Shown here: piece after piece, positions 1 through 3,081 of the stretch
Numbering within the stretch: position 1 is the first letter of the stretch
How the letters are laid out: each line of letters opens with the position of its first letter
Virus record (IMG/VR): IMGVR_UViG_2582580933_000010
Location: 1 to 4,867 of that record
DNA length: 4,867 bases
Reading direction: 5' to 3' (one strand)
Source: a virus
Lineage: Duplodnaviria; Heunggongvirae; Uroviricota; Caudoviricetes
The notes under the pieces: generated by a model
What the model was told of the DNA's origin: nothing
Database searches by the model: none
Seen by the model: the letters and a program-made list of their open reading frames with translations, nothing else
Program-made: the position numbers and the translations under genes

Positions 1-2165
1 GGCGTCAGCTCAATCCGCGACGGTGCTGCCGGTGCGGCAATCCGGAAGGTGGTGGTGGCAGGTTCACCCTGCTGGCCATAGCTGTTTATCGCCCGCACCG
101 TCAGGGTGTATTCCCCGAGCGGCAGGCCGCTGAAACGGTGCTCCGTGTCTGCGGTGATGGCGGTGGTCACCAGTCTGGCATCCGTTCCCTTACCACTGGT
201 CAGGCGCAGACTGAAGCGCACACCCTTCACCACCCGCGGCGTGTCCCATTTCGCCTGCGCCAGATACTGGCCGTCAGCTGCGCTCACCTCCACCGTCAGG
301 TGCTGCACTGCCGGTGGGATGACGCTGTTCAGGGAACCTGACTGCGGCTCAAAGCGGGCACCGTTATCCACGATGGCTTCTTTTTCCGGTACGTGCTGCA
401 CCGCCGTGATGGCAAAGGTGCCGTCCGTGTTTTCCCGGACGGAGACACAGCGGAACAGGCGACGGCGCAGTGACGGCAGGGAGAGTCCCCACACCCCGTA
501 TGTCTCCACACCATCAGGCAGGGTGCTGACCTGTATCCGGTCCGGCGCGGGGTGTTCGGTGATGTCCACACTCACCGGCTTACCGCTGCCGTTAATCAGG
601 TTCACCGTGGCGGCACCGGTCTCCGGAAGTGTCACTTCACGGTCCAGCGTCAGGGTGCGGGTGGCAGCATCAATGGACAGGACACGTCCGCCGGTCAGGG
701 TCCCGGCATAGTCGTTATCACAGATTTCAATGATGTCACCGGGTGTGTGCCGCAGCCCCTGAGACCCGAGCGTGAAATCCACCGTCTGCGTTTCCAGCAG
801 TCCGGTCTTTATCACCCACAGTCCGGCACGGTGGGCCTGACCGCGGCTGGTACAGCCGAACGCGTCCATCTTCAGCAGATTGCGCCCGTAGCGCAGTATG
901 GCTTCCGGGTCTTCCACCAGTTCCGTGGAGGTCTGCCAGCCGTTCTGCGGGTCGGTGTAATTCACCTCCACCGCCGTGTGCCGGTCCTTCAGGGCACTGA
1001 AGCTGTAGCGGAATCCCACGCCGTTATCATCCACCACCACATCGCTGTTGGTGTACGGCCACACCACATCCGACGGGCGGTCCTGAACGAACGTCAGCGT
1101 CTGGCCGTTCCATACCGGCATACAGCGCATCGCCGAGCAGAAATCACTGAGAACATCCCACGCCTTACGCTGTTGTGCCAGGTACGCATTGAAGGTCATC
1201 CGCGGCTCGGTGCCCCCGAAGCCATCCGGCACCATCTGGTCGCAGTACTGCCCGATGGCATACAGCGCCCACTTGTCCACATCCGCCGCCCCCAGACGTT
1301 TTCCCATGCCGTAGCGCGGGTGAGTCAGCATGTCCCACAGACACCAGGCCGGATTGTTGCTGTATGCCGGTTTCAGACTGCCGTCCCAGATACCACTGTA
1401 CGTGCGTTTTTCCGGGTCATAGTTTGACGGCACCTGGATGATGCGACCGCGGATATGGTAGTTCACCGTCATCTGCTGACCACCAAACTGCTCCGCATCC
1501 ACCTGCATCCCCACAATGGCCGTGTTCGGGTAGCACTGTTTCACATCGATGATTTCGGTGTATGACGACCACAGCGTTCTGTTCTGCAGCTGGTCCGTGG
1601 TGCTGTCCGCCGTCTCCCTGACCATCCGGATGTTAAAGGGGCGGGGAGGCAGATTATCCAGAATCACCGACGCCAGAAACTGCGAGGTGGTCTTGCCGTT
1701 AATGGTGACATCCTTTTCCGTCACCCAGTTACCGTTACGCTGTAACTGAATCAGCAGTCGGACAGAAGAGGGATTACGGTCGCCCTTTGAGGTGGTCTCC
1801 AACAGTGACTGCACCCCGAAGGTGACCCGCAGGCGGTCAATGTTCGCGGACGTAATGGTGCGCGTCACCGGCTTTGCCTTCGTCACTTCCACGCCCAGTG
1901 CGGTTTCCGCCCCGGAGGACTCAAAGCCTTCAGGTGGTGTCTGCTCCTGCTCCCCGGCGCGCCAGACCGCTGTCACACCATGTATCACAGGATTACCGTC
2001 CGTGTCCGTCAGCGGGGTTTTGTTCACCAGGATACTCTGCAGCCCCTTCACCGGACCTTCAATCGGCCCTTCACCAATCGCATCAATCACGCTCATCATC
2101 TGCGTGGACTTAAGATTGTCCTTTGCCTCAACCGGCGTGTGCGCCTTGCCGCCACCTTTGCCCAT
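1..2165 (-). CDS. J: Central tail fibre / host specificity protein J, N-terminal ~721 codons; 3' end lies beyond the window start
   Basis: ATG at 2165..2163 with SD-like AGGGTGAG at 2176..2169. Hand translation from the start gives MGKGGGKAHTPVEAKDNLKSTQMMSVIDAIGEGPIEGPVKGLQSILVNKTPLTDTDGNPV, closely matching the lambda gpJ N-terminus as I recall it. Around 1260..1349 it reads AWCLWDMLTHPRYGMGKRLGAADVDKWALY, and at 3..80 it reads YGQQGEPATTTFRIAAPAAPSRIELT, both matching remembered gpJ segments. The frame (codons at 3k..3k+2) is the same at all three points, and the track shows no minus ORF ending at 2165, so the frame is open to the window edge. Confidence 0.95.
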   Translation of the reverse strand, partial: MGKGGGKAHTPVEAKDNLKSTQMMSVIDAIGEGPIEGPVKGLQSILVNKTPLTDTDGNPVIHGVTAVWRAGEQEQTPPEGFESSGAETALGVEVTKAKPVTRTITSANIDRLRVTFGVQSLLETTSKGDRNPSSVRLLIQLQRNGNWVTEKDVTINGKTTSQFLASVILDNLPPRPFNIRMVRETADSTTDQLQNRTLWSSYTEIIDVKQCYPNTAIVGMQVDAEQFGGQQMTVNYHIRGRIIQVPSNYDPEKRTYSGIWDGSLKPAYSNNPAWCLWDMLTHPRYGMGKRLGAADVDKWALYAIGQYCDQMVPDGFGGTEPRMTFNAYLAQQRKAWDVLSDFCSAMRCMPVWNGQTLTFVQDRPSDVVWPYTNSDVVVDDNGVGFRYSFSALKDRHTAVEVNYTDPQNGWQTSTELVEDPEAILRYGRNLLKMDAFGCTSRGQAHRAGLWVIKTGLLETQTVDFTLGSQGLRHTPGDIIEICDNDYAGTLTGGRVLSIDAATRTLTLDREVTLPETGAATVNLINGSGKPVSVDITEHPAPDRIQVSTLPDGVETYGVWGLSLPSLRRRLFRCVSVRENTDGTFAITAVQHVPEKEAIVDNGARFEPQSGSLNSVIPPAVQHLTVEVSAADGQYLAQAKWDTPRVVKGVRFSLRLTSGKGTDARLVTTAITADTEHRFSGLPLGEYTLTVRAINSYGQQGEPATTTFRIAAPAAPSRIELT

Positions 2166-2196
2166 TGTCTCACCCTTTACTGTGATAACTGTTACG

Positions 2197-2230
2197 CACA
2201 AAAACAACAGGCATCCCGGAGGATGCCTGT
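2197..2230 (-). terminator. Candidate rho-independent terminator, minus-strand oriented, 32 nt upstream of the J start codon
   Basis: Perfect 10-bp stem (2207..2216 pairs with 2221..2230, plus-strand arms ACAGGCATCC / GGATGCCTGT) with 4-nt loop 2217..2220. On the minus strand it is followed immediately by UGUUUUUGUG (2206..2197). No such run follows it on the plus strand, so the orientation is minus. Confidence 0.5.
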
Positions 2231-2363
2231 ATCATGACTGAATAAAAATTCTGAATATCTTCACATTTTCTGTACGCCCCCGTGGCAGATATCATTCCCG
2301 GGCGTTACAGTTTTTTCGGGCCAATAAAAACAAAACTCCCTGTGGTTAATCTTCATTTTCTGT

Positions 2364-2396
2364 TCCCGCAGCCTTCGGTCACTGCGGGATTTTTTC
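2364..2396 (+). terminator. Candidate rho-independent terminator, plus-strand oriented, convergent on the tail operon just beyond the I stop codon
   Basis: 8-bp stem (2364..2371 TCCCGCAG pairs with 2382..2389 CTGCGGGA, 6 G:C pairs), 10-nt loop, followed directly by TTTTTT at 2390..2395. On the minus strand the hairpin is preceded by A6 and not followed by a U-run, so the terminator polarity is plus. Confidence 0.55.
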
Positions 2397-2400
2397 GCTT

Positions 2401-3081
2401 TTATGCCTGCCGCCCGATAACCACCACCTTCCCGTCACCGCCTTCATCACGGGTACTGATGTCCTGGGAGATTCGCCGTGAGCCAACCAGCATTTCACCG
2501 TAAGGCACCGGCATCGGGTTCCCCTGGGCAATCATGTTATCCAGCGACGAAAAGTACGTGTTCTGTTTACCGTTATCCGTTGCCCTGTATTCCGGTGTTT
2601 TTGGCTTCGGGGCCAGCATCTGTGCCACACCACCCAGTATCATGCTGGCACCCAGTGAAAACAGCATCGTGGTGGCAGAAAAACCGCCGGCTGCCAGGGC
2701 TGAACCCCATAACGCCATTGATGCCCCGGCAGTGAAGAACGACCCCACGATGGCCGCCGCCCCCAGCACAATCTGCAGTCCACCTTTTCCGGCCCCGGCC
2801 AGTCGCGGCACAATATGGATGACCGCCCCCTCACCCAGAGGTTCGTGAAGACGGGCGTACACCGCCTCCGGTGCCGTGTCCTCACCGCGAATACGTATCT
2901 GGTACCAGCCTTCGTTCATCTGACGGCGGAATCCCGGCACCTGTAACGACAGCGCCCGGATGGCTTCCGCTGCCGTGTTCACATACAGGCTGAGGCGGCG
3001 GCCAAATCGTTGCAAATCCCCGTGAAGGCAGATGCGTGCCAGTGGCGGTGACGCCAGACAGAATGCGTTCGTCGTTGCCAT
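2401..3081 (-). CDS. I: Tail tip assembly protein I (lambda gpI family; ubiquitin-like N-terminal domain per published family analysis, hydrophobic Gly/Ala-rich C-terminal half)
   Basis: 226-aa ORF in the track, ATG 3081..3079, stop TAA 2403..2401. SD-like GGAGAGG at 3099..3093, 11 nt before the ATG. It sits between K and J as in lambda and overlaps the 3' end of K by 103 nt in another frame. Residues ~101-158 form a long Gly/Ala/Ser-rich hydrophobic segment. Confidence 0.9.
   Translation of the reverse strand: MATTNAFCLASPPLARICLHGDLQRFGRRLSLYVNTAAEAIRALSLQVPGFRRQMNEGWYQIRIRGEDTAPEAVYARLHEPLGEGAVIHIVPRLAGAGKGGLQIVLGAAAIVGSFFTAGASMALWGSALAAGGFSATTMLFSLGASMILGGVAQMLAPKPKTPEYRATDNGKQNTYFSSLDNMIAQGNPMPVPYGEMLVGSRRISQDISTRDEGGDGKVVVIGRQA

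Follow-up and report, generated by a model that had tools for sequence, protein, structure and literature searches.

Gene frame of the I-J gap

The window, that is, the whole stretch of 4,867 nt analysed here, contains lambdoid tail genes, and its minus strand carries all of them. The gene frame was read from the sequence and from the list of open reading frames (ORFs) as follows.

4760-4431, minus strand: tail gene M (sequence and ORF list)
4431-3733, minus strand: tail gene L (sequence and ORF list)
between L and I, minus strand: tail gene K (sequence and ORF list)
2401..3081, minus strand: tail assembly gene I, stop codon at 2401-2403 (stop codon and ORF list)
1..2165, minus strand: 5' part of the host-specificity/tail tip gene J, ATG at 2165-2163 (sequence)

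From the stop codon of I to the start codon of J, the gap spans 2166..2400 and measures 235 bp, compared with 60 bp in lambda (15445-15504), so that it holds the extra DNA between neighbouring genes that is expected of a moron. The GC content is 0.43-0.46 across 2150-2400 versus 0.54-0.65 in the flanks, and the only ORFs listed between the two hairpins of the gap encode 31 and 41 aa. An earlier note on this DNA had put the lambda gap at about 60 bp and had described the 235-bp gap as AT-rich against its flanks and free of long ORFs between the hairpins. The lambda and window coordinates, the GC profile, and the ORF list (longest ORF, 41 aa) bore out each of these points. A copy of the spacer with 100% identity is present in O26:H11 11368 (NC_013361), where it lies between an annotated 'tail assembly protein' and gpJ; O121 RM8352 likewise has the window allele.

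The features assigned within the gap, each with the evidence used, are listed below.

2317..2395, ~79 nt, plus strand, antisense to the tail operon: probable sRNA gene of the PasB/EcOnc22-24 family (alignments, published coordinates, and probes)
2365..2395, plus strand: Rho-independent terminator of the sRNA (folds and consensus helix)
2346..2356, plus strand: conserved single-stranded motif TTAATCTTCAT, the presumptive seed (conservation; unpaired in the consensus fold)
2334-2339, plus strand: second conserved motif, AACTCC (conservation)
2306..2311, plus strand: candidate -10 element 'B', TACAGT (allele counts)
2290..2295, plus strand: candidate -10 element 'A', TATCAT (allele counts)
2250-2265, upstream of the sRNA promoter: CRP-like 16-mer TCTGAATATCTTCACA (inside the conserved block)
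2233..2269, strand not assigned: near-invariant AT-rich block (conservation profile of 76 alleles)
2197..2230, minus strand: terminator-like hairpin in operon sense, upstream of the ribosome-binding site of J (terminator scan and folds)

Homology to the PasB and EcOnc22-24 loci

The PasB family was found in EPEC by RIL-seq and northern blotting in 2021 (Pearl Mizrahi et al., PMC8550237). PasB is an 83-nt RNA of prophage PP6 in EPEC O127:H6 E2348/69 (NC_011601 1466343->1466261; PMC8550237, Table S6) and was confirmed by northern blotting with the probe AATCCCGCAGTGATCGCGGAGCT (PMC8550237). We found that this interval lies between the I homologue, which ends at 1466255, and gpJ, which starts at 1466496, and that it is on the strand opposite to both; in the numbering of the PP6 locus, PasB occupies 1762-1844, I ends at 1756, and J starts at 1997. 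The probe AATCCCGCAGTGATCGCGGAGCT is complementary to the loop and to the 3' arm of the homologous terminator hairpin in E2348/69. Deletion of hfq lowers PasB in two growth conditions (log2 fold change of -6.8 and -2.4), and RIL-seq recorded 37 partners of PasB, with PasB as the second RNA in essentially every chimera. Its mean read count is 482-1082, and those of the neighbouring genes I and J are 5-15 (PMC8550237).

EcOnc22, EcOnc23, and EcOnc24 were reported as homologous Hfq-CRAC peaks in the Sakai prophages Sp15 (Stx1), Sp14, and Sp11 (Tree et al. 2014, PMC4104026, Table S2); by northern blotting they are ~85 nt long, and they are destabilised in the hfq deletion (PMC4104026). All three peaks fall inside Sakai I-J spacers, on the strand equivalent to the plus strand of the window. 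The coordinates of Table S2 refer to NC_002695.1, and their offset to NC_002695.2, gauged with AgvB1, is ~128-143 nt, which sets the peaks on the part of the spacers homologous to PasB. The placement is decided by the northern probe for EcOnc22/23/24, the reverse complement of which has an exact 23-nt match in the Sakai spacer, immediately 5' of the terminator.

From end to end, the window spacer could be aligned with its I-J counterparts in prophage PP6 of E2348/69 and in Sp15, Sp11, and Sp14 of Sakai. For PP6, the mean column identity of this end-to-end alignment was 87%. In the sRNA region, the window copy is only 74.7% identical to PasB and 75% identical to EcOnc22, about the same distance as that between PasB and EcOnc22 themselves (75.9% identity), and homology extends across the sRNA body. 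The 5' end of PasB, 1466343, aligns to window position 2317; the 5' end of the window sRNA is approximate, and ~2302 is possible if promoter A is used. Like PasB and the EcOnc RNAs, the window copy is intergenic between I and J and antisense to both genes. As in PasB, its terminator abuts the I stop codon, and as in EcOnc22-24, the position of the northern probe lies 5' of a common terminator in an RNA of the same spacer and strand, the Sakai RNAs being ~85 nt, Hfq-bound, and Hfq-stabilised. AACUCC, UUAAUCUUCAU, and the CCCGCAG/CUGCGGG stem are common to the window copy and the characterised RNAs, and PasB and the window copy further have in common the U-tract, UUnAUCUUCAU, and the conserved block upstream. 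They differ in the 5' third and in the terminator loop, and the promoter-A elements of the window are weaker. Expression as a discrete Hfq-dependent RNA of ~80-85 nt has been demonstrated for the E2348/69 and Sakai alleles only.

Judging from the alignment, the coordinates, and the northern probes, PasB appears to be an allele of the same locus as EcOnc22-24. The accessible parts of the text of the PasB papers (PMC8550237; bioRxiv 10.64898/2026.05.13.724894) hold no link between PasB and EcOnc22-24. This link and a possible control by CRP, which is considered below, are what the present analysis adds, and we infer both of them. For the window, we conclude, with a probability of roughly 0.85, that the I-J gap is a compact sRNA 'moron' in the lambdoid tail operon, which encodes on the plus strand an sRNA of the PasB / EcOnc22-24 family.

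As the gap is homologous to the PasB / EcOnc22-24 spacers, the feature is real and has already been described. The earlier note had suspected a self-contained insertion, possibly an sRNA locus, and had thought it plausibly undescribed. Its suspicion of an sRNA locus was well founded, with homologous spacers encoding validated sRNAs and lambda lacking ~170 bp here, whereas the supposed novelty has to be given up, the family having been in print since 2014.

Distribution and annotation of the spacer

A BLASTN search with the spacer, which had been suggested beforehand, located it in phages and prophages. With the whole spacer as the blastn query, 147 phage records were matched, nearly all of them Stx1- or Stx2-converting or related Escherichia phages. 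By megablast, 706 of the 5426 complete E. coli genomes carry the spacer, in up to 9 copies each (median, 3). Phages and prophages have the spacer at strictly the same syntenic position. The window allele itself, at 99% identity or more, recurs in 279 records of E. coli and in 9 of phages. When one genome per species was scanned with the conserved block, Escherichia albertii was the sole true match outside E. coli; the other matches were attributed to chance, and the Brenneria match, the only other one inspected, lies in coding sequence (pgi from its translation).

A BLAST search with the E2348/69 sRNA alone has been reported to identify 24 phage genomes (Zhu et al., 10.64898/2026.05.13.724894). 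Compared with the 147 records obtained with the whole spacer, this count is probably an underestimate. The longest exact word common to PasB and the window copy is 17 nt, and thus blastn with a 28-nt word would probably miss the window allele.

In the databases, the locus is unmarked. None of the E. coli matches listed has an annotated feature under the spacer, and no sRNA gene annotation was present in the genome and phage annotations inspected. Rfam release 15 gave no match at the gathering score over the whole window; at E<=10 across 2000-2600, there was none inside the spacer and there were only chance snoRNA/lncRNA matches in the flanking coding sequence. An Rfam search had also been proposed in the earlier note as a check, and it returned no family covering the spacer.

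Anatomy of the sRNA family

An IMG/VR pattern scan, together with phage and prophage loci fetched separately, yielded 138 copies of the locus with 76 unique alleles; of the sRNA itself, there are 46 unique alleles. Across these alleles, two -10-like elements, the CRP-like site at fixed spacing, the single-stranded UUAAUCUUC motif, and the terminator are kept. The -10 elements lie at a constant distance from the upstream block, and the length of the sRNA body is variable, with 71-84 nt from -10 'B' to the terminator.

The terminator consists of the stem CCCGCAG (2365-2371) / CTGCGGG (2382-2388) followed by T6 (2390-2395), and it ends 5 nt from the I stop codon. Its folding energy is -14 kcal/mol, a value equalled by 4 of 200 shuffles, in keeping with the plus-oriented I-proximal hairpin and T6 that had been picked out by eye. 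Because of a loop of more than 8 nt, this hairpin escaped the simple terminator scanner. A consensus fold computed from 22 diverse alleles has the terminator as its sole helix. No covariation was seen in the sRNA among the alleles, because nothing varies in the terminator stem, the 3' arm of which was part of the search pattern.

The 5' 47 nt of the sRNA are predicted to be essentially unpaired. CAUUUUCUGUU precedes the stem, U6 follows it, and a single-stranded seed candidate lies upstream, which is the arrangement of an Hfq module. The seed of PasB has been placed directly upstream of the terminator, in the region of UUAAUCUUCAU (Zhu, Shabalina & Storz 2026, 10.64898/2026.05.13.724894).

Several other structures in the spacer were dismissed. 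A 5' stem-loop in the sRNA appears in single-sequence folds that disagree among alleles, and the consensus retains the terminator alone. Neither the inverted repeat 2187-2197 / 2302-2312 nor the direct repeat CATTTTCTGT (at 2264 and 2354) is conserved in other alleles.

The alleles also bear on whether the spacer might encode an operon-sense small protein of 31 aa, from the ORF 2356..2261 (MKINHREF...). This ORF exists in the window, similar ORFs are labelled 'hypothetical protein' in two phage records, and the first 9 codons look alike among some alleles. Against this, the start codon is ATG in 38 of the 76 alleles, ACG in 28, and absent in 10; the ORF ranges from 6 to 69 aa in length, with unrelated C-termini; and the seed-like motif of the sRNA, read as its reverse complement, gives the conserved codons, which are kept where the start codon is lost. 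With the start codon lacking in half of the alleles and lengths of 6-69 aa, the ORF was rejected, and a protein-coding reading seems to us scarcely credible.

Promoter elements and a CRP-like site

Two conserved -10-like elements precede the sRNA gene, and a promoter scan of the window returned none above threshold. Element 'A' takes the form TATAAT in 40 of the 76 alleles, AATAAT in 19, and TATCAT in 11, the window included; the -35 element for 'A', at 2268-2273 and 16 bp upstream, is TTCACA in 49 of 76 alleles and TTCTGT in the window. The pattern TAnnnT of element 'B' is present in 75 of 76 alleles. Both elements stand at a fixed distance from the CRP-like site in 75 of 76 alleles. Element 'B' predicts a start at 2318/2319, in agreement with the PasB 5' end and with the start of the CRAC peak, whereas 'A' would yield a primary transcript of ~95 nt, which would need trimming to reach the observed size. 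Two promoters that had been put forward as weak candidates fared poorly in the allele comparison: in ATGACT/TATCTT (2234..2261), position 2 of TATCTT is not an A in every allele, and in GTTACA/TAAAAA (2304..2330), the TAAAAA region is variable and contains indels.

The near-invariant block contains the 16-mer TCTGAATATCTTCACA, which matches TGTGA-N6-TCACA at 9 of 10 bases (TCTGA-N6-TCACA). It is the sole match in the window at one mismatch or fewer, with 0.17 expected. The left half-site, TCTGA, is present in 76 of 76 alleles and was not imposed by the search pattern, to which the right half-site, TCACA, did belong; positions 2-3 of the central spacer vary. The centre of the site, 2257.5, would lie at -60.5 or -61.5 from the 'B' start and at about -44.5 with 'A'. 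As the published 5' end is approximate, being based on read coverage and band size, the promoter choice and the position of the CRP-like site relative to the start are uncertain. A conserved CRP-like site ~61 bp upstream of the likely start suggests that the sRNA may be switched on by cAMP-CRP from a predicted class I site.

In published data, overnight LB gives more PasB than DMEM does, and the CRP-repressed sRNA Spf shows the opposite behaviour in the same data (PMC8550237). This pattern fits CRP activation, and stationary phase alone could account for it as well.

The weaker elements of promoter A raise the question of whether the window allele is a decaying, silent remnant and the spacer merely inherited intergenic DNA. 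Compared with most alleles, TTCTGT / TATCAT are degraded, and the U-tract of the window has 6 nt rather than 7. However, TATCAT recurs in 11 of the 76 unique alleles, and the TAnnnT form of -10 'B', the CRP-like site, the seed-like motif, and the terminator are all intact. The near-invariance of the allele over the 279 E. coli and 9 phage records given above makes decay decidedly unlikely, since a widespread and well-conserved allele is not what a remnant would present.

The J-proximal hairpin

On the minus strand, a perfect stem of 10 bp (2207-2216 / 2221-2230) with a 4-nt loop is followed by UGUUUUUGUG at 2206-2197. This hairpin was the top match of the terminator scan, and its stability of -17.9 to -19.9 kcal/mol was reached by none of 200 shuffles, so that the minus-oriented hairpin with a U-tract reported in the earlier note stands. 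With the terminator prediction that the note had recommended for both strands, the J-proximal hairpin was called and the I-proximal one was missed owing to its long loop. The pair 2214-2223 covaries, being C-G in 30 alleles, T-A in 14, and mismatched in 5, which are apparent recombinants. In 19 of 76 alleles, the J-proximal hairpin is swapped for an unrelated one, which is flanked by T-rich runs on both strands.

Lambda has a comparable element at 15463-15482, where a GC-rich hairpin in operon sense precedes a run rich in U and is located, like 2197-2230, ~25-40 nt upstream of the J start. The lambda hairpin has no detectable sequence similarity to that of the window and is not called by the simple terminator scan, and the lambda spacer is without the sRNA module. 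As one hairpin is the sRNA terminator and the other is an operon-sense structure with a counterpart in lambda, the two do not bound one unit, as had been supposed when the gap was described as an insertion enclosed by them. The J-proximal hairpin is part of the I-J junction and separate from the sRNA.

We considered whether a second, minus-strand sRNA might start in the spacer centre and run over 2231-2275 to the J-proximal terminator, forming a divergent pair with the first. The block is near-invariant, and on the minus strand its AU-rich sequence leads directly into a GC hairpin and U-tract, much as in an Hfq-binding module. However, no conserved minus-strand -10 or -35 element was found by eye or by scan, and the Sakai Hfq-CRAC tables and the EPEC RIL-seq rows listed contain no minus-strand RNA here and none ending at the J-proximal hairpin. 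Invariant half-sites with a variable centre suit a protein-binding site better than an RNA seed, and the 19 alleles with an unrelated hairpin keep the block. A second sRNA was rejected for want of a conserved promoter and of any trace in these tables and rows, and we judge it very improbable.

A long-range minus-strand helix around the conserved block, formed by an A-tract and a U-tract, was also seen in the window and Sakai alleles. It is broken in recombinant alleles and was therefore treated as chance A/T complementarity.

Proposed mode of action

On the evidence above, the plus strand would be transcribed independently of the tail operon into an sRNA of ~80 nt, from ~2318 or, with the other promoter, from ~2302, and transcription would end at the intrinsic terminator (2365-2395), right next to the stop codon of I. 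The RNA would have a long, unstructured, A/U-rich body with AACUCC and UUAAUCUUCAU. Its 3' part, in the order U-rich stretch, GC stem, and U-tail, would complete the standard Hfq-binding layout. The sRNAs of the homologous loci accumulate in lysogens in which the tail genes are silent, depend on Hfq, and form chimeras with dozens of mRNAs. By analogy, the window copy is predicted to be an Hfq-dependent, trans-acting sRNA that base-pairs with host and accessory-genome mRNAs through a seed in the single-stranded UUAAUCUUCAU region. cAMP-CRP would possibly activate its promoter via the conserved CRP-like site. The J-proximal hairpin, in turn, might halt polymerase unmodified by the phage Q antiterminator before J, and Q-modified polymerase might read through it in lytic growth.

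Two groups of phage RNAs invite comparison. AgvB and AsxR are likewise short, Hfq-dependent sRNAs of lambdoid/Stx prophages that are expressed in the lysogen. They differ in lying at the moron site of the late promoter pR', in having an unrelated sequence and a length of 51-60 nt, and in their demonstrated function as anti-sRNA sponges. Identity of the window sRNA with AgvB/AsxR is ruled out by the unrelated sequence and by a position at pR' rather than in the tail operon. The OOP RNA of lambda is short, has its own promoter and intrinsic terminator, is convergent with a phage gene, and is complementary to phage mRNA; it acts in cis, by way of RNase III, on cII, whose coding sequence it overlaps. 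The window sRNA is proposed to be, like OOP, a short, independently promoted antisense RNA with its own terminator. In contrast to OOP, it is wholly intergenic, and its homologues behave as trans-acting Hfq sRNAs.

The likeness to OOP brings up a mainly cis-acting sRNA, which would pair with the late mRNA at the I-J junction and alter its processing, its stability, or J expression. The sRNA indeed lies wholly inside the I-J intercistronic region, on the opposite strand and perfectly complementary to the junction, and the strict synteny of the locus in phages and prophages would suit such a role. However, PasB is abundant in lysogens that keep I and J almost silent, its Hfq-mediated chimeras are with 37 other RNAs, and none with the I-J region occurs among the RIL-seq rows listed. 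We hold a mainly cis-acting function to be rather unlikely and favor a trans-acting sRNA. A cis role need not exclude a trans role of the same sRNA.

Meaning of the locus

As the gene is absent from Rfam and from annotations, readings from sequence alone will keep rediscovering this locus, and in the literature PasB and EcOnc22-24 are handled separately. The conserved CRP-like site and the seed motif provide concrete handles for experiments. Tentatively, and with the odds leaning against it, we suggest a joint reading in which the sRNA is a cAMP-CRP-activated switch, J is under a second check in lytic growth, and the family is broader than described. If this were true, a CRP-activated sRNA would link whichever host or virulence mRNAs it targets to the host's carbon status. 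In lytic growth, the second check on J would come from the operon-sense terminator acting jointly with an sRNA that is perfectly antisense to the I-J junction, and PasB and EcOnc22-24 would be one mosaic locus carried by most long-tailed Stx phages.

CRP-like site upstream of the sRNA, and a direct repeat

In the window, the following site precedes the likely start of the sRNA by approximately 61 bp.

2250-2265: CRP-like site, TCTGAATATCTTCACA

When the 76 alleles (unique spacer sequences) were compared, the half-sites of this sequence were invariant while its centre was variable, and the spacing between the site and the -10 elements was fixed. Neither CRP nor a promoter is mentioned in the available parts of the two PasB papers (PMC8550237; bioRxiv 10.64898/2026.05.13.724894). 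An exact 10-nt direct repeat, CATTTTCTGT, was also found in the window at 2264-2273 and 2354-2363, 90 bp apart. The first copy is situated at one end of the CRP-like site and the second directly precedes the sRNA terminator; other alleles did not keep the sequence as a repeat.

Replacement and recombination of the J-proximal hairpin

The segment with the J-proximal hairpin (window 2197-2230, minus strand) was swapped for a longer, unrelated one in 19 of the 76 alleles, in which the spacer was approximately 340 bp long. Two examples of such alleles are as follows.

121-464 of L019 (PPompW_699): spacer with a replaced J-proximal segment
1-330 of L034 (E. albertii): spacer with a replaced J-proximal segment

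The replacement carried its own hairpin, AAACCCCGGTATC-AGCA-GATACCGGGGTTT, which looks bidirectional, with T-rich runs on both strands. Further, five IMG/VR alleles had a C·A mismatch at the positions homologous to window 2214/2223, their left and right hairpin arms coming from different hairpin types, which suggests that recombination breakpoints fell inside the hairpin loop. Such breakpoints would fit the mosaic composition of the entire I-J spacer. The 60-bp I-J spacer of lambda consists mostly of a sense-strand GC hairpin (L009, the lambda locus, 764-783, corresponding to lambda 15463-15482), with the structure AAACCGCC-UGCG-GGCGGUUU followed by UGUCAUUU. We know of no described function for this lambda hairpin.

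PasB and EcOnc22/23/24 at one locus

PasB (EPEC, 2021) and EcOnc22/23/24 (EHEC, 2014) were found at one I-J locus and on one strand, with an identity of about 76%.

1762-1844 of L002 (EPEC E2348/69 prophage PP6 locus): PasB
2350-2427 of L003 (EHEC Sakai locus; NC_002695.2 2902849-2902926), strand equivalent to that of PasB: EcOnc22/23/24-family sRNA

In the available part of the 2021 paper, the PasB table gives EcOnc homologues for PasA and PasD and none for PasB (PMC8550237), and EcOnc is absent from the available text of the 2026 preprint (bioRxiv 10.64898/2026.05.13.724894). The first 23 nt of the EcOnc22/23/24 northern probe (Tree et al. 2014, Table S3) matched Sakai Sp15 perfectly, and its final 10 nt (…CTGATGAGTTA) had no exact match to the Sp15 sequence; this mismatch may reflect a text-extraction error or a probe made for another copy.

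Copy number and gene context of the module

Two IMG/VR contigs carried two copies of the module (conserved block and sRNA terminator) within approximately 225-450 bp, an arrangement that suggests tandem duplication.

4420-4784 of L100: double-copy module
543-1128 of L110: double-copy module

In a Stx2a phage (L010, Stx2a_WGPS2, 1-267), an IS66-family transposase gene was present at the expected start of J, directly adjoining the sRNA module. In a few IMG/VR contigs (U46, U49, U51, and U52), the sequence past the sRNA terminator bore no relation to the gene I end, indicating that the module is present in other gene contexts too.
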